A DNA stretch of 36,009 nt from assembly GCA_043810775.1 (NCBI GenBank), contig JBDRNU010000009.1:1-36009 (forward strand). Direction: 5' to 3'. The notes below the pieces were generated by a model. The model worked only from the letters and a program-made list of their open reading frames with translations, ran no database searches and was not told the DNA's origin. The position numbers were made by a program, and so were the translations under genes. The stretch is from an archaeon. GTDB taxonomy: Archaea; Nanobdellota; Nanobdellia; Pacearchaeales; GW2011-AR1. Below are positions 1 to 31,400 of the stretch, one piece after another; the first letter of the stretch is position 1, and each line of letters begins with the position of its first letter.

Positions 1-839
1 TAGCATATCTTGGCCCTGAAAAAACATTTACTGAAAAAGCTGCACAGGAGCTGTTTCCAGATGATGAATTAGTAGCTATGCAACCAATAAGAAAGGTTAT
101 TTTAGCTGTTGAAAACGGTGAAGTTGAAGCAGGAGTAGTCCCAATTGAAAATTTTTATAATGGTGAGGTGAGAGAAACTTTAGACACACTTAGTGAATGC
201 TCTAAAACTAACATAGTAAAAGAAAAGGCTATGAAGATTGTATTATGCTTAGGTGCTTTAAAAAATCATGGAAAAATCAGCAAGATTTTGTCCAAAGACC
301 AGGCTATAGAGCAAAGCAGCAGATATTTAAGCGAGAATTATCCAAATGCGCAGGCTATAGCTGTTCCCAGCACTGCAGAAGCAGTAAATATAATTAAAAA
401 CGAAAAAATGAGTGATGGTGCTGCAATTGCTTCGGAAAAGGCACTGGCAGAAGGGGGATTGGAATTTCTTGATAGAGATATATGCCCAAATAATAAGACA
501 CGTTTTGTAGTTTTAAGCAGACAAAAGGCAAAGAAAACTGGAGATGACAAGACTTTTCTTGCATTGCATCCTCCAGTAAGCGACAAGCCAGGAGTCTTAC
601 ATAATAGTTTGGGGGTTTTTGCAGGATTAAACATAAATTTGGAGCTAATCATGTCCAGACCAGATGGAAAGAAAGCATACTTTTTTTACATTGAGCTTGA
701 TGGGCATGAAGATGATGAGAATGTAAAAATGGCGATTAATTCACTAAAGCTCTCGCTTGATCCTGAAAAAAAGTTCCCAGATACAGTTAAAATTCTTGGA
801 AGCTACCCAAATTCACACTGGAAAGATGAAGAAAATTAA
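1..839 (+). CDS. pheA: Prephenate dehydratase (PDT + ACT domain), 5'-truncated by window edge
   Basis: Frame is open upstream of the ATG at 78, reading AYLGPEKTFTEKAA from nt 3 (the PDT N-terminal YLGPxGTF motif). Also GVVPIEN, the NKTRF catalytic motif, and ACT domain DKPGVL...MSRP...FYIELDGH...LGSYP. Confidence 0.93.
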   Translation, partial: AYLGPEKTFTEKAAQELFPDDELVAMQPIRKVILAVENGEVEAGVVPIENFYNGEVRETLDTLSECSKTNIVKEKAMKIVLCLGALKNHGKISKILSKDQAIEQSSRYLSENYPNAQAIAVPSTAEAVNIIKNEKMSDGAAIASEKALAEGGLEFLDRDICPNNKTRFVVLSRQKAKKTGDDKTFLALHPPVSDKPGVLHNSLGVFAGLNINLELIMSRPDGKKAYFFYIELDGHEDDENVKMAINSLKLSLDPEKKFPDTVKILGSYPNSHWKDEEN

Positions 840-1617
840 TATTATTGGTGGAAGTGGCATTATGGGCCAAATTCATAAGAAGATATTTGAAGAAGCAGGA
901 TATGAGGTTATTATTTCCGGCAGGAATTCAGTTCCAAGCATTGAAGATGCTGCTAAAAATTCTGATTTAACTATTGTAAGCGTGCCTATTTCTGCAACTG
1001 AGGAAGTGATTAAGAAGGCTGCTCCTAATTGCAAGGCAATAATGGATTTTACTGGATTAAAAATATTTCCAGTCAAGACAATGCTTAAATATTCTGATGA
1101 AAATTGTGAAGTGGCTGGACTGCATCCAATGTATGGAAATGTTGACTCAATTAAAGGAAGGTCTATAATCTACTGCAAGACTGAAAAAACCGGGAAAAAA
1201 TGCGAAGAAGTAGTTAAATGCCTAAAACAAGCTGGAGCAAAAATAAAAGAGATGACTCCAGAAAGACATGATTTGATTGTATCTGCATTGTCTCAAAATA
1301 TCAGGTCGGAGATTTTGGAAGCGTACTCTCTTTTAATGGAAGATTATGGAATTAGTGCTGAGGATTTATATGAGATTGCATCCCCCCTCACTAAAATTAT
1401 CTTGGATGCAATTGCCAGACAAGTAAATCCAAAAAATGATGAAATGTACAGAGAAATGAGAAAATTTAATCCATTTGAAGAAGAAATAAAAGACAGGTTT
1501 TTGAAAAATCTTGAAAAAGTCAATGAAAAAGACATTCCTGAAAAAGTTAGAAAATTATTTGGAGATAAATTAGGGGAAGCTCAAGAAAGAGCTAAAAAAT
1601 ATACTAATGAAAATTGA
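826..1617 (+). CDS. tyrA: Prephenate/arogenate dehydrogenase
   Basis: Rossmann IIGGSGIMG, VSVPI, DFTGLK, GLHPMYG, MTPERHD. The ATG at 826 (MKKINIIGG) is a better start than 757. Confidence 0.88.
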   Translation: MKKINIIGGSGIMGQIHKKIFEEAGYEVIISGRNSVPSIEDAAKNSDLTIVSVPISATEEVIKKAAPNCKAIMDFTGLKIFPVKTMLKYSDENCEVAGLHPMYGNVDSIKGRSIIYCKTEKTGKKCEEVVKCLKQAGAKIKEMTPERHDLIVSALSQNIRSEILEAYSLLMEDYGISAEDLYEIASPLTKIILDAIARQVNPKNDEMYREMRKFNPFEEEIKDRFLKNLEKVNEKDIPEKVRKLFGDKLGEAQERAKKYTNEN

Positions 1618-2284
1618 TATTGAAGATTTAAGAATTAGAATTAACCAGATTAATGAAAGACTTATTTCTGGATTAAAAGACAGGTCAAGATATAAATTAA
1701 ATATGGGTATTTTTAGCAACGAATTTTCTAGCGGCATGAGCTGGTTTGAGTATAGGCTAAAAAAAGAACAGGATTTAGATTCTGAATTTGGAAGGTTTGA
1801 GTTTCCTGACCAGGCGCCAATTTTATTTAAGAAAGAGGAACTCACCAGTCCAAGGAAGCAGAGAATTATACCTGAAAGCGAAGTAAAAATGCTTATAGTT
1901 GATATTGGGAAAGAAATAATTGAATTTTACAAGGAAATTCTGCCAGAACTATGCAGAGAAGGTGATGACAAAGAAAGCTATGGTGAAACTGCAAAACTTG
2001 ACGTTAATAATATTTTATTATTTAGCGAGAGAATAGGTGGAATTGGGAAGTGTGTGGCCCAGGCTAAACTGCAAAAAAATCCTGAAATTAAAAATCTTGA
2101 AAATGAACAGGAATTATTAGAAGCTCTTGAAGATAAAGCTAGAGAACAGGAATTAATTTATGAAGTTAAGAGGATTGCTGAAGAGTATGAACTTAACATG
2201 CCAGAGCTAATTGAAAAAATATTCAGGAAAATAATTGAGTTTAATAAAAAGGTGCAGATAAATTATATCAAAAATCTAGATTGA
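1607..2284 (+). CDS. Chorismate mutase, eukaryote-like (Aro7/AroQ-beta type)
   Basis: 225-aa all-helical protein in an operon with pheA/tyrA. GRFEFPDQAP, EGDDKESYGETAKLDV, SERIGGIGKCVAQAK and FNKKVQINY parallel the recalled yeast Aro7 motifs. Confidence 0.8.
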   Translation: MKIDIEDLRIRINQINERLISGLKDRSRYKLNMGIFSNEFSSGMSWFEYRLKKEQDLDSEFGRFEFPDQAPILFKKEELTSPRKQRIIPESEVKMLIVDIGKEIIEFYKEILPELCREGDDKESYGETAKLDVNNILLFSERIGGIGKCVAQAKLQKNPEIKNLENEQELLEALEDKAREQELIYEVKRIAEEYELNMPELIEKIFRKIIEFNKKVQINYIKNLD

Positions 2285-14372: not shown

Positions 14373-14813
14373 ATGCAAGAGTTTATTGAAAGTTTAATGC
14401 AAGAGCATGAAAGTATTGAAAGAGAGCTGGTAGAATTAGAGACAATAATGCAGAGTAGAATTCTAAATTATCCAAATTTAATTCATGTATTTAAGAAGTT
14501 AAGGAATATTTGGGACCATCATGAGGAAAAAGAGGAAAAAGTTTTTCCGCAGCTAAGAAAACAAAGATTACTAGTTTCTATTGAAAAAATGATATTTGCA
14601 CATCAAAGCCTTAGGCCCCATAAAGATGCCATAACTCATGCAATTAATGCAGGCAATGATTTTGAAATAAGAAGAACTTTAAATGTCAATGGAAAGGTGA
14701 TAATTGAAAAGTTAAGAGAACATATTAAGAATGAAGAAGATGAACTATTTACAGCTGTATTAGACAGTTATTCATTAGAAGATTTAACTACAATTTGGGC
14801 GTCAATTGATTAG
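14373..14813 (+). CDS. Hemerythrin-like (HHE) domain protein
   Basis: LMQEH, HHEEKEEKVFP, AH, EHIKNEEDELF: the H-HxxxE-H-HxxxE pattern. Confidence 0.8.
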   Translation: MQEFIESLMQEHESIERELVELETIMQSRILNYPNLIHVFKKLRNIWDHHEEKEEKVFPQLRKQRLLVSIEKMIFAHQSLRPHKDAITHAINAGNDFEIRRTLNVNGKVIIEKLREHIKNEEDELFTAVLDSYSLEDLTTIWASID

Positions 14814-15676
14814 CGTTTTTTCTTTTTAGAAGTTCTTTTTATAACTTTTTCTTTCATTATTTTGACTTTTCTGTAAATGATTATAGTTAAGATAAGTATA
14901 ACTATCAGGACAATTAAGAAAAATACTACAAACCATGTATCTACTGTTACTGGACCGAAAATAGGGAAGTCTATTATTGCTATTCTTTCTTCACACTCTC
15001 TTTTTTCAATTTTCAAATCCTCACACTCATTATTATCTATACACTGCCTCTGCTGTATGCTATTTTTGCAAGATGACCATTCTGAACAAGACCAGTCTGC
15101 AATGCAAATGTCAAATTCAGAGTCATCTAAAACATTGGTACAGCCAGGGTCGCCTAGAAAATCTATTTTGCCATCATTATCATTGTCAATTCCGTCATTG
15201 CACTCCCTAGGGGGAAACTGCTTTTCTTTATCTCCCCCAATATGCTCAATTGGAGGAGGTTCATAAGAAGTGCATAAAGATTCATTAAAATAACAATTAG
15301 CTGTGCAGTTAAGAATACCAGAATTATATCCTAGAGTAATACAAGTTTGATTATTTAGATTGATTAAGTCACATTCTTCACCAGGATTTACATTACTATC
15401 CCCACAATAGTATTTAATTTGAAATGTTCCAGAAACATCAAAAGCTAAAACTAACTCTAAATCTGATTTAAAAAAATCAAAAATCTTTTTAAAAAAATTT
15501 TTTATGTATTCAAAAAAGCCCGGTTTTTCTAATTCTTGAGGCTGGTTGAGAGTATCATTACCTTCAATAACTTCACCTGTTATTACAAATCTGCCTGTTA
15601 CTGTCCTGGCTGAAATAGGCACAATTAGCATTATTAAAAATACAACTAAAAATAATGAAAAAAGCAGTATTCTCAT
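14810..15676 (-). CDS. Secreted, C-terminally anchored Cys-rich surface protein
   Basis: Signal peptide; CGDSNVNPGEECD disulfide repeat; CNDGIDNDNDGKIDFLGDPGC Ca-binding-like repeat; WSCSEWSSC TSP1-like segment; C-terminal TM plus basic tail. Confidence 0.8.
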   Translation of the reverse strand: MRILLFSLFLVVFLIMLIVPISARTVTGRFVITGEVIEGNDTLNQPQELEKPGFFEYIKNFFKKIFDFFKSDLELVLAFDVSGTFQIKYYCGDSNVNPGEECDLINLNNQTCITLGYNSGILNCTANCYFNESLCTSYEPPPIEHIGGDKEKQFPPRECNDGIDNDNDGKIDFLGDPGCTNVLDDSEFDICIADWSCSEWSSCKNSIQQRQCIDNNECEDLKIEKRECEERIAIIDFPIFGPVTVDTWFVVFFLIVLIVILILTIIIYRKVKIMKEKVIKRTSKKKKR

Positions 15677-15677
15677 T

Positions 15678-16205
15678 TTATTTACTTTTTCTTTTTCTGT
15701 ACAAATAGATTACTATTATTGCTAGAAGTATTATGATAACTATTGATAAAATTACTATTATTGGAAGATAGTAACTTGGTTTTATAGGTTCATATAAATT
15801 TTGTTTTGACCTTTCTGAAACTGCAGTTACTGTAATTGGCAGCCCGCAAGTATTAAGGGGAATTGTTGTTCCTCCTATACCTATAGGCTCACATAACATA
15901 CAAAAACGATGTTCATACTGTCCGTATGGAGCATCCTTAGATAGAGCCACTTGGCCTTCAATATTAAATCTCTGGTATTGACCTATAGTGTAGTTTGGTT
16001 CAAGTGTTATTGCCAGGTATTCATTAGGACCAATATCTGGAGTACATATTACATCAGTATGCTCTGAAGCTATTTTTAAGATAAATCCAGTTGTTTCTCC
16101 TGGTTTTAGCTCCATATTCTGCGGCTGAGGAACATACACTGCTGTTGAACTTGCTAAGCTAACTAAGAAAAATGCACAAAGCAATATTAAGATTGTTTTT
16201 TTCAT
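15678..16205 (-). CDS. Membrane-anchored Ig-like surface protein (DUF916/PapD-like pattern)
   Basis: Signal peptide MKKTILILL, ELKPGETTGFILKI, SKDAPYGQY, C-terminal TM plus RKRKSK. Confidence 0.65.
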   Translation of the reverse strand: MKKTILILLCAFFLVSLASSTAVYVPQPQNMELKPGETTGFILKIASEHTDVICTPDIGPNEYLAITLEPNYTIGQYQRFNIEGQVALSKDAPYGQYEHRFCMLCEPIGIGGTTIPLNTCGLPITVTAVSERSKQNLYEPIKPSYYLPIIVILSIVIIILLAIIVIYLYRKRKSK

Positions 16206-16206
16206 T

Positions 16207-18033
16207 TTATACAACATCAATAGTAATAGTTATTCTTGTTTCATAGGTTCCTGGCTCTAAACCAAGTGGAGGCATTATATGAAAATAAGTATTAAGAGTT
16301 TCATCTAGAGAAGGATTATTACAAGACATTACATCACAAACATCTAATCCTCCAGCAGGGAAAAATGGCACGTCAACTGGAGATTCTAAAATATTTGAAG
16401 AGGCTAATCCAATGTCTTCAAATAAGGCAGAATCATCATCAATTGAAAAGTTCGAGTCAGCTGACAGATCCCAACAGGTTGTATTGCTTGGACTGCAATC
16501 TCCCCCAGGTCCATCTAAAATAGGATCTTCTGCTGTCCAGTTAAGATTTAGAGCTACGTTTCCTGAATTATTTAGGTAAGATAAACATGTTCCGTTATTC
16601 CAGCTACCAAGCTGGACATCATCGCCACCACATTCAATTGGGTCTCCCAAGTCAACTGAAATTGGATAAGCTATACCATATAAAGGAGCATAGGTCCAGT
16701 TATAATTAAATAATAAGGTTGAGATTCCTGCTTGGCTTGAAGCATTTAGATATAATTTATAATCTTGAGGAGCTCTAAAAAATTCTATTCCCCTTGAATC
16801 TCCTGCTGGTATTGAAACTGAGAAATTGCAGAGCGTGCCAGAAGATGCTGAAAAAATAAGAGGATATGTAAAATTTGCACTTCCAGATAAGCAGGATTGT
16901 GGTGACGATGCATCAATCAGACATAGGGCTGCAGAAGCACCATGAATTACAGCTGAACAGTCACCATCAGTGTCATTAAATTCATAAATAATATTTACTG
17001 GAGCATAAGACTCTGACTCAGGATAGAGAAGACAGTACTGAGCTGCTTTTGTGCAGGTTACTTCATCTCCTGGAACATCCCCTATATAAACATCAGAAAA
17101 TTGAGGCAGATAATCAACTAGCTCAAAGAATGTATCATTAGAAGTAGAGTTTATTCCAAAATTATCTGTTGACCAGAGTCTTGTATAGGTAGTTGTTCTT
17201 GCATCTACTGCTCCTGGAGTTCCCCATGGAATTGGATTAGTGACTGTTGCTTGAGGATTAGCTAGTAAATAAGCTACTAGATATTCTTGTGCTCCTGGAG
17301 TTGCTCCAACATAAGCATTATAATTTAGAGTATCAGCTGGCCAGTGATCTTGACTTCCATCATCAGGGTCTGAACCTGTCCAGTTTATTTGAGGAGTTTG
17401 GTCGTGAGTTTCTTTCTGAACTAAGCCAGTAGGTATATTTGGCACAGAGTTTATTAGTATAAAAGAGTAAGAGTTTGTTGAGTTTTTTTGAGGAGTTCCA
17501 CTATCAGTTACATATAAATCAACATAAAATGTTTTACTGCAGAGACCAGTTACAAAGTTGCAGTCTGTATCTGAAAGTTTAATTATGTCTGTTGTTCCTG
17601 GACCAAGAGGGTCTGTACCATAAGTATAAGTTTGTGGTGAGTTTCTTGGAGAAGGAGATAGGGTATAATTAACTATTGTGCAAGCTTCGGTTGACAGGGG
17701 ATTTGAAACAGTCCCAATACAAATTCTAGTAGTTATCTGGTCTGGATTTGGATCTCTTACACGCCATCTTAGCTCTGTTGTCAGGTCGTGAGTATCTATA
17801 GGAGCAGAAGAATCCCAATTTGAACTGCCATCTCTAACTTCATATGAATCTGTATAAGGCGGCTCATTTGCCACCCTAAACCTACCTGTTGAAGTTTGCT
17901 GAGATAAAACTAGGTATGAAGAAATAATAATTATGATAAAACATAGTGCAATCACCTTCCTGCCAGAAATCCTTGATTTCTGGACACTATCAAAAAAGTT
18001 ACCACTCTCACTCCTCTTTTTTGAAGTTTTCAT
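16207..18033 (-). CDS. Large secreted beta-rich, Cys-containing surface protein
   Basis: Signal peptide, two THDxT..W..xDP Ig-like repeats, many N-x-S/T sequons; C-terminal half paralogous to the next gene; ends PGTYETRITITIDVV. Confidence 0.8.
   Translation of the reverse strand: MKTSKKRSESGNFFDSVQKSRISGRKVIALCFIIIIISSYLVLSQQTSTGRFRVANEPPYTDSYEVRDGSSNWDSSAPIDTHDLTTELRWRVRDPNPDQITTRICIGTVSNPLSTEACTIVNYTLSPSPRNSPQTYTYGTDPLGPGTTDIIKLSDTDCNFVTGLCSKTFYVDLYVTDSGTPQKNSTNSYSFILINSVPNIPTGLVQKETHDQTPQINWTGSDPDDGSQDHWPADTLNYNAYVGATPGAQEYLVAYLLANPQATVTNPIPWGTPGAVDARTTTYTRLWSTDNFGINSTSNDTFFELVDYLPQFSDVYIGDVPGDEVTCTKAAQYCLLYPESESYAPVNIIYEFNDTDGDCSAVIHGASAALCLIDASSPQSCLSGSANFTYPLIFSASSGTLCNFSVSIPAGDSRGIEFFRAPQDYKLYLNASSQAGISTLLFNYNWTYAPLYGIAYPISVDLGDPIECGGDDVQLGSWNNGTCLSYLNNSGNVALNLNWTAEDPILDGPGGDCSPSNTTCWDLSADSNFSIDDDSALFEDIGLASSNILESPVDVPFFPAGGLDVCDVMSCNNPSLDETLNTYFHIMPPLGLEPGTYETRITITIDVV
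17963..17983. repeat. Hairpin element in-frame inside CDS
   Basis: CCAGAAATC-CTT-GATTTCTGG, a perfect 9-bp stem of the same form as 5295-5315. Confidence 0.65.
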
Positions 18034-18072
18034 AATATATTCTTGTTAAAGTATTATTTAAATATTTCTATA

Positions 18073-19230
18073 TCAAGGAATCAGGATATTAATCTGAACT
18101 TTTCCTTCGTAATTTCCAAATGGAAGCTCTGGAATTCTCATATTATAGTATGTTGAAAATCTTTCTCCGACACTAGAATTGCAAGAATCTGAAATGCAGG
18201 TTTTTAGGTGAGGATATGGAGAAAAATATGAGACTGAATAATTAGTTATGTAAACTGGCCAGACACCTGTTTCTGAAGTCTCATTAAATAAAGAGTCGTC
18301 ATCAATCTGGAAAACTGGGTCTGGATAAGAGATTTGCCAGATGCCCGTGCAGTTAGGAGAGGTACAATTAAAATTTTCTCCCTGCCAGGTTAAATTAACC
18401 CCAATATTTCCAAAATTAATTAGAGAAATTCCTCCCAAGGGCCGAGCTGTCACCCATTTATTCATGTAAAGCTCACCAAAGTCAATTGAGTCAGTATAGT
18501 TTATTGTTGCAAGCATATTATATGTAAAATTAGTTTCATTGAAAATATTATCTGAAAGAGCAATTCTTAGCTTCCAGGTTCCAGGCTTGCGCCAAAACTG
18601 CAAAGTAGAATTCCCACGGTACTCATACATACAGTCTTGAGAACCTACTTTATAAGCATAGTTTAAGACAGCTGAATAAGTATAATTATTTTTATTGCAA
18701 TTAAAATAATTATTAGGAGAGCACAAGTAGGCATTTAAGCTATAATCCCCGCATTTCCTTGCATTTATTATTGAGGAAATAATAACACTTGAATTTTTAC
18801 CCTTTATAGGATTAACTAAAAGATGCTGATTTGGGCTGTCAAAATCAGTTATATCTGGCCTGTATACTTGCCATTGCTGTGGTGGTTGAGAAACTGTAAA
18901 AAAATCAATCTCATAGTCTGCAATCTGGTAGTCCCAGGTTGCAAAATAGTACTGGCCTTCAAAGCTTTGAGGGACAACATAATTAATAGTTTGCTTGGTA
19001 TTGCAAGGGTCACTGCAACTAACTAGGATTGCATCTACTAAAGTTGTGTTCTGCATTACAGGGATAACTGGACGAAATCCGAACTTTTTATTGGGATTAA
19101 TTGTAATAGAAATTGTTTCTCCTGGATAAACAGAGCTAGCACTTATAGTAGTAATTGCGCAAACTAATTCTAAAGTAAGAACTATGAAAACCAGAGTGCA
19201 AAATATTAAAGCCAGAGTTTTTAGATGCAT
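18073..19230 (-). CDS. Secreted beta-rich surface protein, paralog of 16207..18033 C-terminal region
   Basis: Signal peptide; LQFWRKPGTWKL, NFGNIGVNLTW, IDDDSLF, GNYEGKVQINIL; many sequons. Confidence 0.8.
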   Translation of the reverse strand: MHLKTLALIFCTLVFIVLTLELVCAITTISASSVYPGETISITINPNKKFGFRPVIPVMQNTTLVDAILVSCSDPCNTKQTINYVVPQSFEGQYYFATWDYQIADYEIDFFTVSQPPQQWQVYRPDITDFDSPNQHLLVNPIKGKNSSVIISSIINARKCGDYSLNAYLCSPNNYFNCNKNNYTYSAVLNYAYKVGSQDCMYEYRGNSTLQFWRKPGTWKLRIALSDNIFNETNFTYNMLATINYTDSIDFGELYMNKWVTARPLGGISLINFGNIGVNLTWQGENFNCTSPNCTGIWQISYPDPVFQIDDDSLFNETSETGVWPVYITNYSVSYFSPYPHLKTCISDSCNSSVGERFSTYYNMRIPELPFGNYEGKVQINILIP

Positions 19231-19673
19231 TGTTTTATATTGCTATATTTAGGAGCCCCTTCATAGCATAGTATTTTTTCCTGCTGAAGTCTTGGAACTA
19301 CATAAATTTCTTTTATTGGCTCTGTGATGGGTTCCTGGAAAATTACATAAGCTGTTTTTGATTCAAATCCCCTGATAGTTGTTCCTGGAATTGTAGGAGC
19401 TTTTGATGTTTCTCCAGCTCCAAAATTAATTAATATGAGCAAGAAATCCCCAAGAAGGACATTTTTATTATTTTTAACATCAACCTTGAGTATATTATTT
19501 TCATAGCAAGCGTCTAAAATTGCAACATCCATATCCTGAAGACATGAAAACTGAGTAGAATCATCATGAACACTAAATTTCTGGATTACCAAGGCCATTA
19601 TCAGAGAAAAAATTGCAGCTAAGAGTATCAAGAAAACCATGACTATAAGTGTCGAAACTCCTCTTTTTCTCAT
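19221..19673 (-). CDS. Archaeal type IV pilin-like protein (class III signal peptide)
   Basis: MRKRG|VSTLIVMVFLILLAAIFSLIMALVI: basic leader, G at -1, hydrophobic helix; C-terminal IYVVP. Confidence 0.75.
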   Translation of the reverse strand: MRKRGVSTLIVMVFLILLAAIFSLIMALVIQKFSVHDDSTQFSCLQDMDVAILDACYENNILKVDVKNNKNVLLGDFLLILINFGAGETSKAPTIPGTTIRGFESKTAYVIFQEPITEPIKEIYVVPRLQQEKILCYEGAPKYSNIKQCI

Positions 19674-19714
19674 TTTCTCATTTAATATAATATACAAGAA
19701 AAAAGTTGTTTAAA

Positions 19715-20542: not shown

Positions 20543-20624
20543 TTTATATATATCACTTATTTCTAATCCTAATCCAATACAACAAATTGTATAAAAAAAG
20601 GTTGAGGTATACAATATATTGTAC
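20543..20624 (+). promoter_or_regulatory. TATA box and tandem NrdR boxes
   Basis: TTTATATA 20543-20550; ATACAACAAATTGTAT 20577-20592 and ATACAATATATTGTAC 20609-20624, 32 bp apart, matching the palindromic acaCwAtATaTwGtgt consensus. Confidence 0.82.
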
Positions 20625-20630
20625 TTTAAA

Positions 20631-21068
20631 ATGTTATGTCCTTACTGTAAAAATTCTGAAACGAAAGTAACTGATAAAAGAGATGCTGAAAAATTAACTA
20701 GGAGAAGGAGAGAATGCCTGAAATGTTCAAAGAGATTTACAACTTATGAGAGATTTGAACTAGGGAATTTTTATGTTATCAAGAAAGATAAAAGAAGAGA
20801 GATATATAACAGGGACAAATTATTATTAGGATTTGTCAAGGCTTGTGAGAAGCGTCCTGTAAGCCATGATAAAATTGAAAAAACTGTAGGTGAGATTGAA
20901 GAAAAAATCAGCAAAAAGAAAGAAATTGAAAGTGACATTATAGGGGAGATGGTTATGAAAGCACTGAAAAAAATAGACAAGGTAGCATATATCAGGTTTG
21001 CTTCTGTGTACAAGGATTTTCAGGACGTAAATGACTTTAAGTCAGCTATGAAGGAGGTGGGAAAATAA
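20631..21068 (+). CDS. nrdR: Transcriptional repressor NrdR (Zn ribbon + ATP cone)
   Basis: CPYC...RRRRECLKCSKRFTTYE, VIKKDKRRE, DKVAYIRFASVY; ATG at 20631. Confidence 0.96.
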   Translation: MLCPYCKNSETKVTDKRDAEKLTRRRRECLKCSKRFTTYERFELGNFYVIKKDKRREIYNRDKLLLGFVKACEKRPVSHDKIEKTVGEIEEKISKKKEIESDIIGEMVMKALKKIDKVAYIRFASVYKDFQDVNDFKSAMKEVGK

Positions 21069-23680
21069 TGGCAGAAGTAATCAAGGATTTGCCTGACTAT
21101 ACGGGAGAAATAGATATTTCCAAGGTTTTTGGAGAAAATGGAGTGTATATGCTTGAAAAAAAATATCTCCTTAGAGATGATACTGGAAATGTTATTGAAA
21201 GTCCTTTAGAAAGAGTTTATACTATTTGCAGAAGAGCGGCGGAGATTGATAGGGGTTACGGAGCGAGCGAAGAAAAAGTTGATGAACTGACAAAAAACTT
21301 TTTTAGTATGATAGTGAATAGGGAGTATTCACCTGCTGGAAGAATTTGGTCTAATGTTGGTTCAGATATTCTTGCTCTTTTTAATTGTTATGTTCTTCCT
21401 ATTCCTGACGATACAGAAGGAATATATGAGGCTGTTAAGAATGCTGCAATTATTCATAAAAATGGCGGGGGAACTGGGTATAATTTTTCAACTTTAAGAC
21501 CAAGAGGAACTTATGTTAAAAAATCAAAAGGGCTAGCTTCTGGACCAGTGTCTTTTATTGGGCAGTTTGATAAAGAAACTGAGATTATTAATTCTGGAAA
21601 CAGGAGAGGGGCAAATATGGCTGTTTTTGATGTTTATCATCCTGATATTCTTGAATTTATTTATGCAAAAACACTTGAAGGAGAGCTTCAGAATTTTAAT
21701 ATTTCTGTTGGAGTTAGCAATGAATTTATGAAAAAAGCCAAGGAGGAAGGTTATTACACGCTAAAATTTCCTGATGAGCAACCTTTTACTAAAGATAAGC
21801 TTGAAGATATTATCAGAAACATTGAAGAAAATAAGCTCGGAGGAGCTGATGTAGGCAAGAAACCCAGACCAGCTTCATTAAAGCTAGATAAAAATGATAT
21901 AATTGATACTTATACTGACAAGGTTATTGGGAGAGTTAATGAGGAAGGATATGTCCAGCTAAAAGCTGATTTGCTATTAGATAGAATGGCTGAGCTTGCA
22001 CATAAAACAGGTGATCCTGGAATGATTTATCTTGACAGGATTGAACAAGATAATCCTCTGCCTTCTGCAGGAAAACTTAATGCAACTAATCCCTGCGGTG
22101 AACAACCACTTCATCCTTATGATGCCTGTAATTTAGGAAGCATAAATTTAGAGAAGATGATTGACAGAGAAGATGTTGACTGGGAAAAACTCAAAAATAC
22201 TGTGTGGCATGCGGTAAGATATCAAGATAATATAAATGACCTTAACAAAGGACCAATAAAACAAATAGAAGAAACTGTCAAGAGAAACAGAAGAATTGGT
22301 TTGGGAGTGATGGGGTGGGCTGACATGCTAGCTCAATTTGAAATTCCTTATGATTCTGGCAAAGCTTTTGAACTTGGGGAAAAGGTTATGAGTTATATTA
22401 GTGAGGAAGCAAAAAAAGCTTCAGCTTCACTAGCAAAAGAAAAAGGAGTGTTTCCATCATATGAAGAAAGCACTTGCAATACAGGGAATGAAGAAGATAG
22501 AGTCAGAAACTTGCAGAGGACAACAATTGCACCTACTGGAAGCATTAGTAATTTATTTGAAGTAGCTAGCGCAATAGAACCTTATTTTGCAGTAGGATAT
22601 ACAAAAAATCTAAGAGGTGGAGACAAATTATATTTCTTAAACAGGCATTTTTTAGGGGCTTTGAAAAAAAGAGGCTTTGATGAAGAGCAAATTACAAAAA
22701 TCAAAAGAGAAGTTGAACAAAAAGGTGGAAGCTGTCAAGAAATAGGAGAAGTTCCAGATGATTTAAAAGCGGTATTTAAAACTGCAATGGAAATTAGATA
22801 TGATAAGCATATTGAAATGCAGGCTGCATTTCAGAGAAAAACTGATAATGCTGTTTCTAAAACAATAAATATGCCTGAAGATGCAACAATAGAAGATATA
22901 AGGAAGGCATATATTCGGGCGTGGGAGTTGGGATGCAAAGGGGTCACTATATATAGGGATAAGAGCAAGATGGTCCAGGTATTAGAAGGAGGGGTAAAAG
23001 ATTTAGAGGAGAGAGTTGAAATTGTCATGAATGATGTTCCTATTAAAAGCAATGCAATGAAATTAGCTCCTTTTGCCAGACATTACAAAGTTAATAGAGG
23101 TAAAGATACATTCCACATAATTGTATCTTCAAAATTATATAGGGACAAAAGTGATACAAACAGGTACTTTGCAATTCCTAATGCAGTATTTCAGTTAATA
23201 AGGCCTCTTGGAACAGAAGAGGCAGCTGAGTTTGCTCAATCAGGACTAGACAGGACTAAAGTTCTTCAAGCTTCTGATCCAGATTATTTAGAATTTGCAC
23301 AAGACCTTAAATCTGTAAGAGGTGATAAAGCAGAGGGATTTGGACTCGGAAGAGTTGAAAGCCCTTCTCATGCTGTAGGCATGGCTATTGAGCATTTATT
23401 GTTAAGCTATGGCTTGATTGGATGGGAGGATGCTGGTGAAATTAAAAAAATGGCGGTAAAGGTGAAAAAAGGTGAGCTGGAAAAAGTAGATGATAAAGAA
23501 GCTTTAGAAATAATGAAAAGATATCAAAGTCAGGGAGAAAGAGTTGATTTTGACCCAAGAGGAATTAGAAAAATTGAATTTAGATGCGGAAAATGCAGTA
23601 ATACAGAATATATTATGGAAAGTGGATGCAGAGACCCTGTTTGCAAGGGATGTGGATGGAGCTTAGGAAAGTGTGATTAA
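21068..23680 (+). CDS. nrdJ: Class II (adenosylcobalamin-dependent) ribonucleotide reductase
   Basis: LFNCYV, GGGTGYNFS, RRGANM, TNPCGEQPL, CNLGSINL, TTIAPTGSIS, AVSKTIN, KGVTIYRD; C-terminal Zn ribbon; no beta subunit nearby. Confidence 0.93.
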   Translation: MAEVIKDLPDYTGEIDISKVFGENGVYMLEKKYLLRDDTGNVIESPLERVYTICRRAAEIDRGYGASEEKVDELTKNFFSMIVNREYSPAGRIWSNVGSDILALFNCYVLPIPDDTEGIYEAVKNAAIIHKNGGGTGYNFSTLRPRGTYVKKSKGLASGPVSFIGQFDKETEIINSGNRRGANMAVFDVYHPDILEFIYAKTLEGELQNFNISVGVSNEFMKKAKEEGYYTLKFPDEQPFTKDKLEDIIRNIEENKLGGADVGKKPRPASLKLDKNDIIDTYTDKVIGRVNEEGYVQLKADLLLDRMAELAHKTGDPGMIYLDRIEQDNPLPSAGKLNATNPCGEQPLHPYDACNLGSINLEKMIDREDVDWEKLKNTVWHAVRYQDNINDLNKGPIKQIEETVKRNRRIGLGVMGWADMLAQFEIPYDSGKAFELGEKVMSYISEEAKKASASLAKEKGVFPSYEESTCNTGNEEDRVRNLQRTTIAPTGSISNLFEVASAIEPYFAVGYTKNLRGGDKLYFLNRHFLGALKKRGFDEEQITKIKREVEQKGGSCQEIGEVPDDLKAVFKTAMEIRYDKHIEMQAAFQRKTDNAVSKTINMPEDATIEDIRKAYIRAWELGCKGVTIYRDKSKMVQVLEGGVKDLEERVEIVMNDVPIKSNAMKLAPFARHYKVNRGKDTFHIIVSSKLYRDKSDTNRYFAIPNAVFQLIRPLGTEEAAEFAQSGLDRTKVLQASDPDYLEFAQDLKSVRGDKAEGFGLGRVESPSHAVGMAIEHLLLSYGLIGWEDAGEIKKMAVKVKKGELEKVDDKEALEIMKRYQSQGERVDFDPRGIRKIEFRCGKCSNTEYIMESGCRDPVCKGCGWSLGKCD

Positions 23681-26770: not shown

Positions 26771-27289
26771 CTATTTCTCATCGCCGGATTTTACATTTTT
26801 TAAAAACCTCATTACATCTTCATTAGTTACTCTAACTTGATAAAGAACATTGCCTAGTTCTGGGTTAAGGAGACACTCTTCTGTTAGAGATTCTGGTTCT
26901 TTATAGTGAAAAGAGTATACTACTTTTTTGATTCCTGCTTGCACTATATCTTTTGCGCAATTTCCACAAGGATAGTATTTTGTATATAAGGTGGCTCCTT
27001 GTAAACTTTCCACTTTCCTATTTAACAATGCATTTTTTTCTGCATGAACTCCTATACATATATTCTGACCTTTTTCACTATATGTGGATCCATGTCTTTC
27101 TTTTCTGCAACCAGCATCCACACAGTTTTGCAGTCCTGTTGGTGCACCATTGTATCCTTCTCCAACAACTGTATGAGCAATAGTGAGAATTGCTCCCCCA
27201 TGAATATGCTTGCATGTTGAACGTGTTGCAGCCACTAGTGCAAGAGCCATAAAATATTGATCCCAGATAGGTCTATCTCTTCTATCCAT
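26771..27289 (-). CDS. dCMP deaminase (ComEB family)
   Basis: RPIWDQYFM, RSTC, GYNGAP, VHAEKNAL, YPCGNCAK, AGIKKVVY. Confidence 0.92.
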   Translation of the reverse strand: MDRRDRPIWDQYFMALALVAATRSTCKHIHGGAILTIAHTVVGEGYNGAPTGLQNCVDAGCRKERHGSTYSEKGQNICIGVHAEKNALLNRKVESLQGATLYTKYYPCGNCAKDIVQAGIKKVVYSFHYKEPESLTEECLLNPELGNVLYQVRVTNEDVMRFLKNVKSGDEK

Positions 27290-28460: not shown

Positions 28461-31400
28461 ATGAAAAAAGATAAACACATAATTATAAAGAAGTATCTAT
28501 CACAACACTCTTTAATAGAGAGCAATATCATATCATTTAATAATTTTGTAAAGTTAAGGATGCAAAAAATAGTAGAAGATCTTTCTGAAAACCTACCAAA
28601 AGATGAAATTGAAATTAAACTAGGAAAAGTAAGAATAGGCAAAGCCAATGTTATTGAATCTGATGGAAGTACTAAACAAGTTATGCCTACTGAAGCCAGG
28701 CTTAGAAATTTAACTTACTCCGCACCAGTATTCTTAGAAATAAGTATAAAGCAAGAAGGACAGATAGAAGAAAACCAAGATGTAGAAATTGGAAGAATAC
28801 CTATAATTGTCAAAAGTGATGTATGCAATACTTCAGGAATGTCTAGAGAGGATTTAGAAAAAGCTTATATTGACCCTTTAGACCCTGGAGGATATTTCAT
28901 CATAAATGGTAATGAAAGAGTAATAGTAATGACTGAGGATTTAGCTGCAAATCAGCCTTTCATTGAAAAATCAAAAGGAAAACTAATGCTAAGATTATTT
29001 AGCCAGAGGGGGGCTTATAGAATTCCTGTTTCTATAACTGAAACTAATGATGGTATTCTGGAAGTTTCTTTTAGTAGATTTAGGAATATTCCTGCAATAG
29101 TATTATTAAAAGCACTTGGAATGTTAAAAGAAGCTGATATTTCTAGATTAGTTGGCAAAGAAACTGATAGTTTTATTGTAAATCTTTATGAGTATGCAAA
29201 TCTTCATAGTGTTGATGACGCGATGATGTTTATTGCTGAAAAAACAAATTTACAAGGTACAAAAAAAGAAATGGTAGATAGAGTGAAGCAGAGAATAGAC
29301 AGTTACTTTATGCCTCATATTGGTTTAACTAAAGAAGATAGATATGAAAAAGCAATTACATTATGTAAATTTATCAAACAATTTTATATTGCAAAAGAAA
29401 ATCCTGAAATCTTGACAGATAAAGACCATTATGCTAATAAAAGAGTAAGACTAAGCGGTGACTTGCTTGCTGATTTATTTAGGGTTAATCTTAACATCTT
29501 ATTAAGAGATATACATTATTCACTACAAAAAATTTCAAAGAGGAAAAAATTCTATAGCCTAAAGACAGTTGCTAAGTCTACTTTATTTTCGCATAGAGTT
29601 GAAAGTGCAATTGCAACTGGAAGCTGGATTGGAGAGAGAACAGGAGTCACACAGAACATGGACAAAACTAATTATCTAGCAATTCTTTCACAATTACAGA
29701 GAGTTTCCAGTATGCTTCCTGGAGAGCAAGAAAACTTTCTTGCAAGAACTTTACACCCTACTCATTACGGAAGATTCTGCCCTACTGAAACACCTGAAGG
29801 AACGGAAATTGGACTAAGAAAAAATCTTGCCATACTAGCTAGAGTCTCAACTGCTGTAAATATGGATGAAAATGAATTTATTAAGACACTTGAAAGTTTA
29901 GGAATGCAAAGAGAGAAAGAAGGCGCAAAGCACGGGAAAGTTGATGTCTTCTTCAATGGGAGATTTATAGGAAGTATAGAGAATCATCAAGATTTTTTTA
30001 AAGATATAAGAAATAAAAGAAGAAATTCTGAATTACCTATTGAACTAAGTGTCAGATATGACAAATCTATCACAACTATAATTATCTCTACTGAAATTGG
30101 AAGAGTTTTAAGGCCTTTAATTATTGTTGAAAATAATAAAAGTAATTTTACTGATGAACATGCTATTCTTCTTGAGCAGGATAAAATGACTTGGGCTGAT
30201 TTAGTTAAACAAGGAATTATAGAATATCTAGATGCAAGTGAGGAAGAAAATGCACTGGTAGCTTTAGAAAAAGAAGATATAACTCCTGAACATACTCACT
30301 TAGAAATAGATAGTATTGATTTTCTAGGATTAGTTACTTCATTAGTACCTTATGCAAACTACGACCCTGCGTCAAGATTATTAAGAGGTAGTAAAACTCA
30401 AAAACAGGCTTTAGGATTATACGCTGCTAATTTCCCAATAAGATTAGATACTGATGTAAGCATTTTACACTATCCTCAAAAACCCCTTGTAAGAAGTTTC
30501 GTTTATGATACTCTCAATATTTACCCTGCTGGCCAAAATTTAGTGGTAGCTATCATGACAAAAGAGGGCTACAATATGGAAGATGCAGTTATATTGAACA
30601 AAGGCAGTGTAGATAGAGGTATGGGCAGGTCAACTTATTTCAGACCATATACTTCAACTGAATTAAATTATGCTGGAGGATTGAGTGATGAAATTGGAGT
30701 TCCTAAAAAAGACACTTCTGGATATAGGACTGAAGAAAGCTATAAATTTTTAGAGGATGATGGAGTTGCTTATCCTGAAGCTGCAATGAAAGAAGGTGAA
30801 GTTGTAATGGGAAAAACATCTCCTCCTAAATTCTTATCAGAAGCAAGGGAAATTTCAATCAGAACAAGAAAAGAAAACAGTTCAGTTATAAGGCAGGAAG
30901 AAAAAGGCACTGTAGATGCAGTTTTTATAACTGTTGAAGATGAGGGAAATAAAGTCGTTCAAGTGAGGACAAGAGATCAGAGATTTCCAGAACTTGGAGA
31001 TAAATTCTCAAGCTCGCATGGGCAAAAAGGAGTTGTGGGAATGCTTGCTGAAGAAAATGACATGCCTTTTACTGCAAGAGGAATAAAACCTGATTTAATA
31101 TTTAATCCTCATGGAATCTTGGGAAGAATGACTGTAGGATACTTAATTGAGTGTATTGCTGGGAAAGTTGGGGCAACTAGCGGGCAAATAATAGATGGTA
31201 CTTCTTTTTCAGGAGTTTCTTTTCAAGACCTTGAAAAACAATTACAAAAAAATGGTTTTAGATACGATGGAAAAGAAACCATGTATCATGGAGTTACTGG
31301 AAAGATGATGACAGCTAAAATTTATGTAGGCAACATGTATTATCTAAAGCTAAAGTATATGGTAAGCAATAAAATTCATGCCAGAGCTTCTGGAAAAGTT

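Follow-up and report, generated by a model that had tools for sequence, protein, structure and literature searches.

A predicted AroQ-beta-type chorismate mutase of yeast and plant architecture in an overlapping post-chorismate gene trio of a DPANN archaeon

Gene organization of the locus

The window, the whole stretch of 36,009 nucleotides of archaeal contig JBDRNU010000009.1 that was analysed here, opens with three overlapping forward-strand genes in the order prephenate dehydratase, prephenate dehydrogenase and chorismate mutase (CM). The first (3..839) is an open-ended reading frame whose 5' end is lost at the contig edge; its pheA-like product carries a C-terminal ACT domain (Pfam PDT, 165.5 bits; ACT, 31.8 bits) and, truncated as it is, scores 204.8 bits against the NCBIfam prephenate dehydratase model NF008865 (cut-off 219). 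The tyrA-like prephenate dehydrogenase gene (826..1617) was listed as a reading frame from TTG 757, and its likely start is the ATG seen in the sequence at 826, which gives an overlap of 14 nt with the dehydratase gene. Its product contains a Pfam PDH_N domain (45 bits) and reaches 134.6 bits against NCBIfam NF006409, for which the cut-off is 310, with the match starting at residue 25 of the reading frame. The CM gene (1607..2284) is an intact reading frame that encodes 225 amino acids from an ATG start, its first 11 nt being shared with the end of the dehydrogenase gene.

The initial annotation had described this last gene as encoding a CM of eukaryotic type in an archaeal operon, and both the 225-residue frame and the archaeal setting are borne out: multi-domain Rpb2 and Rpb1 RNA polymerase genes and the gene for ribosomal protein S12 lie in the window together with the three overlapping aromatic-pathway genes. 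The genome from which the window comes is 80.1% complete in 26 contigs, and its aminotransferases (PF00155) are encoded on two other contigs. The trio recurs in a second genome of the same genus (G001), where a thioredoxin-reductase-like gene and a CYTH gene, and no pathway genes, lie ahead of it. Comparison with this genome reveals purifying selection on the CM (pN 0.129, pS 0.817, saturated) and dN/dS values of 0.074 for the dehydratase and 0.113 for the dehydrogenase, synonymous sites being saturated between the two members of the genus. The source organism is a tiny groundwater archaeon; two DNA runs from one groundwater study contain approximately 0.4 of the sampled sequence words, and no RNA run was among the datasets listed as containing them.

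Class assignment

An AroQ-beta enzyme is described, in the available text of two papers, as a single chain of ~250 residues forming an elaborate all-helical two-lobed bundle as in the yeast enzyme ScCM (PMC7762937, PMC10520331). In the search against the plant/yeast CM model that the initial annotation had suggested, TIGR01802 (CM_pl-yst) was indeed the best NCBIfam match (65.8 bits, E = 4.5e-18, residues 4–200 on profile positions 2–209 of 247), although the score stays far below the equivalog cut-off of 170.9 bits. For this reason it is better not classified as a plant/yeast equivalog; judged by its sequence, it represents a clade of its own, set deeper within the plant/yeast architecture. 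The threshold of the AroQ superfamily is passed by the C-terminal half only (Pfam CM_2, PF01817, 33.1 bits, cut-off 27, residues 126–217). NCBIfam AroQ-alpha models reach at most 26 bits and cover residues 173–223 only, an isochorismate lyase model (NF005475) matches faintly at E = 0.062, and no AroH-type (CM_1) match appears in the Pfam scan at E ≤ 1. Pfam hits to DUF6819, Imm30 and DUF4355, each below its cut-off, were rejected.

Searches of the PDB point in the same direction, and the resemblance goes well past what chance would give. With phmmer, the CMs of maize, Arabidopsis, Candida and yeast were found at E values from 1.4e-12 to 4.7e-7, and Methanocaldococcus jannaschii AroQ only weakly (E = 0.23, or 0.077 for the C-terminal half alone). 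When the family profile was used, all nine sequences at E ≤ 0.01 were CMs of eukaryotes, with alignments spanning the full length. Matches to TAL effectors in the initial PDB search were discarded as a composition artefact, as they covered residues 86–117, contained no stretch that was significant alone and were gone with the family profile. The strings quoted in the initial annotation are all present in the translation (GRFEFPDQAP at 62–71, EGDDKESYGETAKLDV at 118–133, SERIGGIGKCVAQAK at 140–154 and NKKVQINY at 213–220), and the yeast strings given there for comparison agree with the yeast CM chains in the PDB alignments. An AroQ-alpha protomer has ~90 residues in three helices, and a second chain completes its active site; the window protein has 225 residues, with Arg9 and the C-terminal catalytic half in one chain. 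Neither an AroQ-alpha or -gamma enzyme nor an unrelated helical protein, the outcomes named beforehand as contrary to the annotation, gave the best fit in the profile and structure searches, and the best profile and best structures agree with its proposal of a prokaryotic AroQ-beta member. These matches and the structural model described below support the assignment of the gene product as a putative CM of AroQ-beta architecture, the yeast and plant class.

Predicted structure and dimer interface

The AF2 model of the protein (pLDDT 94.7, pTM 0.91) has the two-lobed AroQ-beta fold. Foldseek ranks CMs of plants, yeast and Candida in all of the first 13 places for the model (TMq 0.82–0.87). VIA-align superposes 222 of its 225 residues on yeast 1csm_A with an r.m.s.d. 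of 1.6 Å (Z = 26.9) and gives Z scores of 24.6–26.2 for the maize, moss and Arabidopsis enzymes, compared with 10.3 over 102 residues for M. jannaschii AroQ. DSSP assigns nine helices of at least four residues, where 12 are quoted for yeast. Yeast and plant CM structures were among the training data of the networks that produced both this model and that of the dimer.

The protein probably acts as a homodimer. A two-copy complex prediction scored 0.77, the best of three controls scoring 0.00; as a rough guide, obtained with our own alignment, the same mark is reached by 20 of 30 proteins solved as pairs of a single kind of chain and by one of 23 solved as lone chains. The runs share at least 91% of their contacts, the partner pLDDT is at least 89, and in the symmetric model residues 60–63 of one copy contact residues 125–126 and 129–130 of the other. 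Since yeast and plant CM dimers have already been solved, this result may reflect likeness or memory instead of independent evidence.

The predicted interface brings the conserved Gly62-Arg63 loop of one copy against the Gly126-Glu127...Lys130 helix of the other, at what we take to be the position of the yeast Tyr/Trp effector site. Of the yeast residues that we assume to form this site (Arg75, Arg76, Gly141, Ser142 and Thr145), Arg76 and Gly141 are kept as R63 and G126, Ser142 is replaced by Glu127 and Thr145 by Lys130. The Arg75 position is occupied by Gly62, as it is by glycine in 33 of 44 rows of the eukaryotic clade, and natural short forms of the family exist that have no effector loop. 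In AroQ-beta enzymes, Trp activates and Tyr inhibits at sites on the protomer interface, according to the available text of PMC10520331. That the modelled interface site of the window protein binds an effector seems to us about evenly balanced, and `allosteric' is used of this protein as a class name only.

Active site

In the alignment with yeast, the catalytic residues Arg16, Arg157, Lys168 and Glu198 are kept as R9, R142, K154 and E180, and they are conserved in 51, 52, 52 and 52, respectively, of the 52 members of the window clade; the equivalents of Arg157 and Lys168 had been picked out correctly in the initial annotation. Asn194, Thr242, which is also counted among the catalytic residues, and Glu246 are replaced by Asp176, Asn213 and Gln217, so that four of seven yeast catalytic residues are identical and three are conservative or like those of E. 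coli. The first five of the yeast residues, Arg16, Arg157, Lys168, Asn194 and Glu198, bind the transition-state analogue (PMC5986790, in the text available). Glu246 is described as catalytic in yeast, and Gln is the normal E. coli residue at that position (PMC7762937, likewise in part); Gln217 aligns with both yeast Glu246 and E. coli Gln88, as had been proposed.

A weak hhalign match (probability 22%, E = 0.00097) maps D176, R179, E180, N213 and Q217 of the window protein onto D48, R51, E52, S84 and Q88 of EcCM. Arginine at the EcCM Arg51 position, Arg179 here, is found in 44 of 52, 35 of 40 and four of four sequences of three prokaryotic groups and in three of 44 of the eukaryotic clade; at this site the prokaryotic members retain an Arg-Glu pair like that of E. 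coli, and most sequences of the eukaryotic clade carry Val-Glu. We infer that the active site is a hybrid in which a yeast-like scaffold carries an E. coli-type Asp-x-x-Arg-Glu motif and Gln. Yeast CM, with Glu246, has an acid pH optimum. E. coli-type residues on a yeast-like scaffold would lead one to expect a neutral-pH, Gln-type catalytic profile and not an acid optimum.

Some of these residues are rare even among close relatives: Asn213 occurs in two and Gln217 in four of the 52 clade members. Such substitutions, together with the apparent loss of the upstream pathway discussed below, are what a decaying remnant of a lost pathway, now devoid of function, might display. We consider this very unlikely, as the reading frames are unbroken and overlap, purifying selection acts on each of the three genes and Gln at that position is normal in E. 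coli (PMC7762937).

Distribution and phylogeny of the family

A profile built from the relatives of the window protein found 611 representative proteins; the window protein is thus not unique but belongs to a large, overlooked prokaryotic radiation within an enzyme class supposed to be eukaryotic. The phylogeny with prokaryotic homologues for which the initial annotation had called places it in a clade of DPANN archaea and two PVC bacteria with support of 100/100 (24 rows: 15 archaeal, the window included, two PVC-bacterial and seven without a taxon label). Named fungi fall in a distinct clade (support 100/99), and the remaining prokaryotic clades are gammaproteobacterial and planctomycete. 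In quick trees the gammaproteobacterial/planctomycete clade, and not the window clade, grouped with the eukaryotic clade with support of 89 and 94; this grouping is absent as a branch in the careful tree, and we therefore make no claim as to which prokaryotic clade is nearest to eukaryotes. ESM Atlas matches labelled Chloroflexota and Streptophyta are leads only.

Recent transfer from a eukaryote, as one form of the horizontal transfer raised in the initial annotation, is not supported, as the protein falls in the archaeal/PVC clade, apart from that of the named fungi. Such an acquisition, or eukaryotic contamination of the bin, would account for the eukaryotic nature of the best-matching database models and of every solved relative. 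Against it stand not only the tree and the archaeal RNA polymerase and ribosomal genes of the contig but also the overlap of the CM gene with its neighbours and the retention of Arg179, a residue that most prokaryotic-clade members carry and few of the eukaryotic clade do, and we regard it as extremely improbable.

Within the phylum of the source archaeon the family is sporadic (ten of 401 sampled genomes), and literature searches found no paper describing prokaryotic AroQ-beta members; the family is thus not one already documented as widespread in this lineage, which the initial annotation had said would count against its claim. Where the literature on DPANN archaea treats CM, the text available does not address its subclass. 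Elsewhere the homologues keep the company of aromatic-pathway genes, which lie within 3 kb in 15 of 24 named loci; chorismate synthase adjoins the homologue in nine of the 24, one named locus encodes a PDT-ACT-CM fusion and other DPANN archaea carry the family inside full aromatic-pathway clusters. One contig, dense in genes and carrying archaeal-type tRNA synthetases, codes for a CM whose score exceeds the plant/yeast cut-off.

Pathway context and supply of chorismate

Genes for making chorismate were largely not found in the relatives searched. Chorismate synthase was found in none of eight CM-bearing genomes of the lineage, five of them 97–100% complete, and in none of 25 genomes of the family. 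EPSP synthase and the archaeal DHQ synthase (DHQS) were each found in none of five genomes, Shikimate_dh_N in none of three and genes of the chorismate-binding/isochorismate synthase family in none of five; in the window's genome (G000), G001 and G017 the searches returned no EPSP synthase, Shikimate_dh_N, DHQ synthase of either type or chorismate-binding enzyme. All of these shikimate-trunk and chorismate-binding searches matched in control genomes, and one DHQ synthase match came from a class-level relative (G049). As searches of the lineage yielded neither chorismate synthase nor EPSP synthase nor shikimate dehydrogenase, the chorismate would probably come from a host or neighbour; we give such a supply about an even chance. 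We know of no chorismate transporter and identified none here. A precedent is the PheA/TyrA/AspB/CM operon of a nanohaloarchaeon that otherwise has hardly any amino-acid synthesis (PMC10266531, in the text available).

The protein could instead be a CM of the ordinary housekeeping kind, supplied by a shikimate pathway of the organism itself, since the genome is only 80% complete and the trunk genes could sit in the missing, unassembled fifth. The fragmentation of the assembly, the start of the window inside the dehydratase gene, which leaves upstream genes unseen, and the complete pathway clusters in which the family sits in other DPANN lineages are all in keeping with this. In G001, however, the trio is preceded by the thioredoxin-reductase-like and CYTH genes instead of pathway genes, chorismate synthase was not found even in the five CM-bearing genomes at 97–100% completeness, nor in the 25 genomes of the family, and the other trunk and chorismate-binding genes were not found in G000, G001 and G017, so that we consider an own pathway unlikely.

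Prephenate dehydratase was not found in four of the eight CM-bearing genomes checked (G017, G175, G145 and G042), and a simple end module for Phe and Tyr therefore fails to explain the gene there. This leaves some room for an AroQ-fold enzyme of another activity, such as isochorismate pyruvate lyase or 4-amino-4-deoxychorismate mutase, or for prephenate put to a use other than Phe and Tyr. The AroQ fold hosts activities other than CM besides PchB. PchB itself is such a case (PMC12329711, in part), and the faint match to the isochorismate lyase model points the same way. The CM catalytic set is nevertheless conserved, in part through similar or E. coli-like residues, the gene overlaps those of the prephenate-consuming dehydratase and dehydrogenase, the five genomes searched have no gene of the chorismate-binding/isochorismate synthase family and homologues adjoin chorismate synthase in the nine loci mentioned; another activity is accordingly quite improbable.

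Proposed function and origin

We favour the reading, at a probability of about three in four, that the gene encodes a working cytoplasmic AroQ-beta CM in an overlapping post-chorismate module. It rests on the predicted fold, the catalytic residues, the gene order, the purifying selection and the placement of the family in pathway clusters of other DPANN archaea. A single chain of ~225 residues would suffice for a whole active site, which the small bacterial enzymes assemble from two intertwined chains of 90 residues. The CM would be made together with the prephenate dehydratase and dehydrogenase from the three overlapping genes, and the module would convert chorismate to prephenate and this to phenylpyruvate and 4-hydroxyphenylpyruvate, from which aminotransferases encoded elsewhere in the genome could yield Phe and Tyr.

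A broader proposal is put forward tentatively, and we think it less probable than its negation: that AroQ-beta arose in prokaryotes, that it passed to eukaryotes from an archaeon or a bacterium and that the window CM is a surviving intermediate, in a module running on host-supplied chorismate, between the 90-residue AroQ-alpha dimer and the allosteric eukaryotic enzyme. A DPANN symbiont would then depend on its host for one particular metabolite, chorismate. A prokaryotic origin is favoured by three observations: the prokaryotic groups retain the arginine that aligns with EcCM Arg51, which is rare in the eukaryotic clade, the contig with archaeal-type tRNA synthetases carries a CM above the plant/yeast cut-off and natural short forms lack the effector loop. 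A 2024 review calls plant CM `probably of eukaryotic origin' (PMC11439500).

The architecture is distributed across uncultured DPANN archaea and across bacteria of the PVC group, Gammaproteobacteria and Planctomycetota, often as the pathway's own CM, and a rooted tree could now test where the eukaryotic enzyme came from. The family also offers natural variants for studying how allostery was added to the AroQ core (full-length forms, loop-less forms and forms with either Gln or Glu at the position that sets the pH dependence), and a post-chorismate module without means of making chorismate would be an assayable dependency in genome-reduced archaea.

Comparison with known systems

The PheA/TyrA/AspB/CM operon of nanohaloarchaeon BNXNv is likewise a DPANN post-chorismate operon, the CM subclass being unstated in the text available (PMC10266531). 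EcCM, the N-terminal domain of PheA and the AroQ-alpha prototype, belongs to the same superfamily and shares the second-shell residues D176, R179, E180 and Q217 (D48, R51, E52 and Q88), but only residues 175–221 of the window CM can be aligned with it, and its ~90 residues form an intertwined dimer with two active sites (PMC10520331, in part), in contrast to the one chain of 225 residues, R9 included, found here. MjCM is also an archaeal AroQ-class CM, of the alpha type (PDB entry 2gtv is an engineered monomer), and can be fitted to part of the model; its chain has under half the length and no second lobe.

The AroQ-beta-like effector Cmu1 of Ustilago maydis is two-lobed and works outside a complete pathway of its own (Z = 15.9, 184 residues aligned), but it is far more distant (Foldseek E = 5.5e-3). 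Cmu1 is secreted and has a signal peptide, whereas the window CM starts directly with the catalytic helix that carries Arg9 and has no N-terminal extension.

The closest likeness is to S. cerevisiae Aro7 (ScCM) and plant CM1 and CM2. Compared with yeast, the window CM is ~30 residues shorter, has a gap of ~10 residues at the yeast 216–225 loop just before Thr226 and carries Arg instead of Val at yeast position 197. It resembles these enzymes in fold over nearly the whole chain and in Arg16, Arg157, Lys168 and Glu198; it has the Gly-Arg-Phe...Pro-Asp loop in common with the plant enzymes, and its predicted symmetric homodimer uses helices equivalent to those of the yeast and plant dimers.

Assignment to the AroQ-β class

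Three independent routes, namely curated profiles, sequence matches in the PDB and the predicted fold, identify the protein encoded at 1607–2284 as a chorismate mutase (CM) of the yeast/plant type. Its top NCBIfam model is the plant/yeast model TIGR01802 (E = 4.5e-18, residues 4–200); all of the AroQ-α and AroQ-γ models score at most 28 bits and are confined to the last 50 residues, and CM_2, the general AroQ model of Pfam, covers residues 126–217 only (33.1 bits). Searched singly against the PDB, the protein matched CMs of maize, Arabidopsis, Candida and yeast with E-values from 1.4e-12 to 4.7e-7; the M. jannaschii enzyme reached no better than E = 0.23. Of the 31 proteins found at E ≤ 0.001 in a word-indexed search, the 30 closest (77–34% identical to the window protein) form alignment A1; used as a profile (cut-off E ≤ 0.01), A1 retrieved nine different PDB sequences, each of them a eukaryotic CM, and its positions 3–223 align with residues 10–252 of yeast CM. 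The AlphaFold2 model built from A1 (pLDDT 94.7, pTM 0.91) retrieved plant, yeast and Candida CMs as its top 13 Foldseek matches (TMq 0.82–0.87), and VIA-align superimposed 222 of its 225 residues on yeast CM (1csm_A; Z = 26.9, r.m.s.d. 1.6 Å). Yeast and plant CM structures were included in AlphaFold2 training; the sequence evidence holds independently. The model is less similar to Ustilago Cmu1 (Z = 15.9) and to M. jannaschii AroQ (Z = 10.3, 102 residues).

The initial annotation had described this gene as a eukaryote-type CM in an archaeal operon, which is confirmed by TIGR01802 as the best model, by the nine eukaryotic PDB matches, by the yeast-like predicted fold and by the archaeal contig. 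Its further proposal of a prokaryotic member of the AroQ-β class stands for the architecture and does not extend to orthology with Aro7: the protein falls short of the TIGR01802 equivalog threshold and carries clade-specific signatures, and is therefore placed in the class as a prokaryotic variant in its own right. It very probably works as a CM of AroQ-β architecture.

Active site

Residue equivalences were read from the alignment of the A1 profile with yeast CM. Yeast Arg16, Arg157, Lys168, Asn194, Val197, Glu198, Thr242 and Glu246 correspond to Arg9, Arg142, Lys154, Asp176, Arg179, Glu180, Asn213 and Gln217 of the window protein, respectively. Arg16, Arg157, Lys168, Asn194 and Glu198 contact the transition-state analogue in yeast CM (PMC5986790). 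In a profile–profile comparison with the E. coli CM (EcCM; PheA residues 1–100), Asp176, Arg179, Glu180, Asn213 and Gln217 align with Asp48, Arg51, Glu52, Ser84 and Gln88 (E = 0.00097, probability 22%), and this register agrees with the equivalences of yeast Glu246 to E. coli Gln88 and of yeast Asn194 to E. coli Asp48 stated in PMC7762937. The glutamine noted earlier at the Glu246 position is thus borne out against both yeast CM and EcCM. Because its residues map onto both enzymes, the window CM appears to combine a yeast-like scaffold with an E. coli-like second shell of the active site.

Residue frequencies were counted over 140 aligned family members; because the groups compared were taken from the quick tree, they depend on the same sequences. 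In every group the four core catalytic residues hardly vary. The Val197 position is arginine in 44/52 rows of the window's clade, in 35/40 other prokaryote-like rows and in 4/4 rows of the bacterial clade; the 44 rows of the eukaryotic clade have Val (33), Gln (4), Arg (3), Ile (2) and Ala (1). Within the window's own clade, Gln217 is a minority state (4/52, the remainder being Glu), as is Asn213 (2/52).

Gene, operon and contig

The CM gene (1607–2284, + strand) is an uninterrupted ORF of 225 codons with an ATG start, which lies 11 nt within the 3′ end of a prephenate dehydrogenase gene, whose ORF opens at 757 and whose likely start is the ATG at 826 (PDH_N 45 bits; 134.6 bits on NF006409, short of that model's cut-off). 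The start of the latter in turn overlaps the 3′ end of a gene for prephenate dehydratase with an ACT domain (3–839, cut by the contig edge; PDT 165.5 bits). The downstream neighbour of the CM gene is a convergent M48 peptidase gene (Pfam). The order dehydratase–dehydrogenase–CM is kept within the genus, in genome G001, and comparison with G001 indicates purifying selection on the CM gene (pN 0.129 versus a saturated pS of 0.817), the dehydratase (dN/dS 0.074) and the dehydrogenase (dN/dS 0.113). We regard the observation of a real, selected β-type CM gene in an archaeal Phe/Tyr end-module as confirmed and its interpretation as supported with qualifications, catalysis being predicted.

The same contig encodes ribosomal protein S12 and archaeal multi-domain RNA polymerase subunits of 1088 aa (Rpb2-like) and 1160 aa (Rpb1-like), which marks it as archaeal and not as a stray piece of a eukaryotic genome. 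The assembly (G000) spans approximately 1.0 Mb in 26 contigs and is 80% complete; the nearest homologue is labelled ‘archaeon’.

Several other features of the contig were recorded. The Rpb2-like gene (28461–31727, +) precedes the Rpb1-like gene (31735–35217, +), with S12 after it; the Rpb1-like gene is a single ORF carrying Pfam Rpb1 domains 1 to 5, the Rpb1-type subunit being split into A′ and A″ in many archaea. At 20619–23680 (+) an NrdR-like repressor (zinc ribbon and ATP-cone), a regulator typical of bacteria, lies immediately 5′ of an 870-aa ribonucleotide reductase; a 384-aa protein with a weak thymidylate-synthase match (28 bits) follows, and a dCMP deaminase gene lies nearby (26771–27289, −). 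Five consecutive ORFs at 14810–19697 (−; 288, 180, 608, 385 and 158 aa) lack a Pfam match at E ≤ 1e-5.

Apparent absence of the shikimate trunk

Every search for trunk genes matched its control genomes. Chorismate synthase was found neither in G000, G001 and G017 nor in five more CM-bearing genomes of the same class that are 97–100% complete; it had no match in any of the 25 genomes of the window's family, and the two instances among 41 relatives both come from other families of the order. EPSP synthase, archaeal DHQS and chorismate-binding enzymes were each found in 0/5 genomes and Shikimate_dh_N in 0/3; bacterial-type DHQ synthase was present in one of five (G049). Prephenate dehydratase occurs in 7/41 relatives, and class I/II aminotransferases are present in G000 and G001.

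The dehydratase and dehydrogenase reactions are irreversible decarboxylations, so that the module runs only from chorismate towards Phe/Tyr. On the simplest reading, with G000 80% complete, chorismate or prephenate would be obtained from outside the cell, in keeping with the dependence on hosts that is commonly proposed for DPANN archaea. A similar post-chorismate operon is described for a cultivated nanohaloarchaeon (PMC10266531). The dehydratase is found in four of the eight CM-bearing genomes checked (G000, G001, G049 and G390). The other four (G017, G175, G145 and G042, of the window's family or class) carry a CM, and searches of the whole genomes found neither chorismate synthase nor prephenate dehydratase; a Phe/Tyr module leaves the lone CM of these genomes unexplained.

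Distribution and phylogeny

Searched exhaustively with the profile, 1.84 billion representatives yielded 611 proteins at E ≤ 0.001, of which 356 lie at or below 1e-10 and 80 at or below 1e-30. Among 111 of the 146 new representatives listed (35 shorter than 200 aa or matched in two pieces were omitted), TIGR01802 is the best NCBIfam model for 110; 27 reach its cut-off, 16 score 130–170 and the rest 27–105. A pattern scan covering a single genome from each prokaryotic species located 24 loci, 22 labelled archaeon, Woesearchaeota, Nanoarchaeota/Nanoarchaeia, Candidatus Forterrea or ‘ainarchaeum’ and two labelled bacteria (Kiritimatiellae and Lentisphaerae). The CM gene is sporadic in the window's phylum, as profile matches occur in 10 of 401 sampled genomes and a protein match in three of 41 close relatives. 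Seven A1 members (P0005, P0008, P0010, P0012, P0013, P0014 and P0025) bear a C-terminal tail of 20–40 residues with repeated Gly-Trp-Gly/Gly-Phe-Gly, absent from the window protein.

A quick tree of 140 rows (P0058, P0078 and P0113, partial or unmatched, were dropped) and a careful, unrooted tree of 80 rows, selected for coverage of the clades and of every named sequence, share three strongly supported groups but fix no branching order among them. In the careful tree, the window's clade (24 rows, support 100/100) contains 15 archaeal rows, one being the window protein and the other 14 named records, plus two PVC-bacterial and seven unnamed rows; a bacterial clade has nine rows (100/99); and a third clade of 30 rows (100/99) comprises every row with at least 130 bits on TIGR01802 and four named fungal sequences. 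The separate bacterial clade, with β-type CMs of ∼235 aa, includes P0101, P0205, P0209, P0223, P0237, P0286 and ∼200 more, some on megabase-sized contigs. A search seeded with P0101 gave 207 proteins; the few that are named belong to Granulosicoccus, other Gammaproteobacteria, a Chromatiales symbiont of a bryozoan, Pseudomonadota and Planctomycetota, and their contigs reach 5.7 Mb.

The initial annotation had considered the protein relevant to the origin of the eukaryotic enzyme or to horizontal transfer. Recent transfer from a eukaryote is unsupported, since the window protein is not nested among the eukaryotic rows of these unrooted trees. Transfer between domains is suggested at least once, because both PVC-bacterial rows lie inside an otherwise archaeal clade. 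These Kiritimatiellae and Lentisphaerae homologues (L010:6001–6768 and L017:6001–6768) are 42–43% identical to the window protein and have sulfatase and fucosidase neighbours rather than aromatic-pathway genes.

P0112 (L032:4397–5107), in the high-scoring clade, reaches 187 bits on TIGR01802, above the plant/yeast cut-off; its nearest named relatives are chytrid fungi (33–39% identity). Its contig, L032, 10 kb of gene-dense metagenomic sequence, looks prokaryotic and also encodes a ValRS (NF009687, 782 bits, above cut-off), two TrpRS-like proteins (PRK12285 type), an amino-acid racemase and an ABC ATPase. If these synthetase types are archaeal, as we presume, then CMs as similar to the yeast enzyme as those of chytrids occur in some prokaryotes.

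Dimer and effector-site position

In yeast CM, Tyr or Trp binds at the protomer interface, with Arg75/Arg76 on one side and Asn138/Asn139, Gly141, Ser142 and Thr145 of the partner on the opposite side; from the yeast alignment, we take the counterparts to be Gly62, Arg63, Glu123, Ser124, Gly126, Glu127 and Lys130. Across the 140 aligned members Arg63 and Gly126 are kept in every clade (in the window's clade, Arg or Lys in 51/52 and Gly in 52/52), and the Arg75 position is mostly Gly in the eukaryotic clade too (33/44). Glu127 and Lys130 are each conserved in 46/52 rows of the window's clade but unlike their counterparts in the eukaryotic clade, and they vary among prokaryotic clades; the Ser142 position is Glu in 26/40 other prokaryote-like and 4/4 bacterial-clade rows and Ser in 33/44 eukaryotic rows.

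Prediction of two copies on A1 gave a homodimer scoring 0.77 (best of three controls, 0.00), a mark reached by 20/30 proteins solved as one-chain pairs and by 1/23 solved as single chains, counts that apply only approximately because A1 was supplied as the alignment; because yeast and plant CM dimers have been solved, the score may reflect likeness alone. Contacts agree by at least 91% between runs, partner pLDDT is at least 89, and the most confident contacts include 61–126, 63–126, 62–126, 61–129 and 61–130. In the predicted dimer these contacts bring the conserved loop of one protomer up to the conserved turn of the helix in the other, as in yeast. Among 164 family members whose C-terminal half is intact (counts inflated by relatedness), Gly126 is present in 138/141 with the 58–71 loop and in 9/23 without it, most of the nine resembling N-terminally truncated gene calls. 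Nine aligned short forms of 167–217 aa (alignment A2: P0086, P0092, P0094, P0095, P0097, P0123, P0124, P0135 and P0148), one of them with Gly126, lack residues 45–100 including the Gly-Arg loop and keep helix 1 (Arg9, Arg26) and the catalytic half, as does G042:C2:62125–62688; they may be unregulated or intermediate architectures. The joint loss of loop and Gly126 fits one functional site built from both elements, which could serve either effector binding or mere dimer stabilization. The ACT domain of the dehydratase offers a separate point of feedback control.

Family context and comparison with known systems

Among ORFs within 3 kb of the homologues (24 named loci, 136 ORFs, several loci cut by contig ends), 15 loci have aromatic-pathway genes beside the CM, including prephenate dehydratase/dehydrogenase, class IV or class I/II aminotransferases, chorismate synthase, EPSP synthase, shikimate kinase and dehydrogenase, DHQ synthase and anthranilate synthase; chorismate synthase adjoins it in nine of the 24. 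No such neighbours were found within this distance at nine of the 24 loci, including both bacterial ones. The 15 loci are strong contextual evidence that the family provides the pathway's working CM. In DPANN aromatic clusters, bacterial-type shikimate kinase (Pfam SKI) occurs in three different fusions: EPSP synthase–SKI (L007:7984–9810), SKI–chorismate synthase (L009:4809–6491) and shikimate dehydrogenase–SKI (L030:7863–9248).

These proteins are already in databases, several labelled ‘chorismate mutase’ by JGI and most ‘hypothetical protein’ by NCBI. The literature searched, with few subscription journals covered, yielded no description of prokaryotic AroQ-β members; earlier notice elsewhere is possible. 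The AroQ-β class is described through the yeast enzyme in PMC7762937 and PMC10520331, and plant CM is called ‘probably of eukaryotic origin’ in PMC11439500. The window CM belongs to a wide radiation, in prokaryotes, of a fold usually presented as eukaryotic, and its importance lies in the evolutionary question thereby opened and in the physiology of the orphan module. An uncultured archaeon (L030:5143–6579) encodes a 478-aa fusion of prephenate dehydratase, ACT domain and a shortened β-type CM, the reverse of the CM–dehydratase–ACT order given for the E. coli P-protein in PMC10520331.
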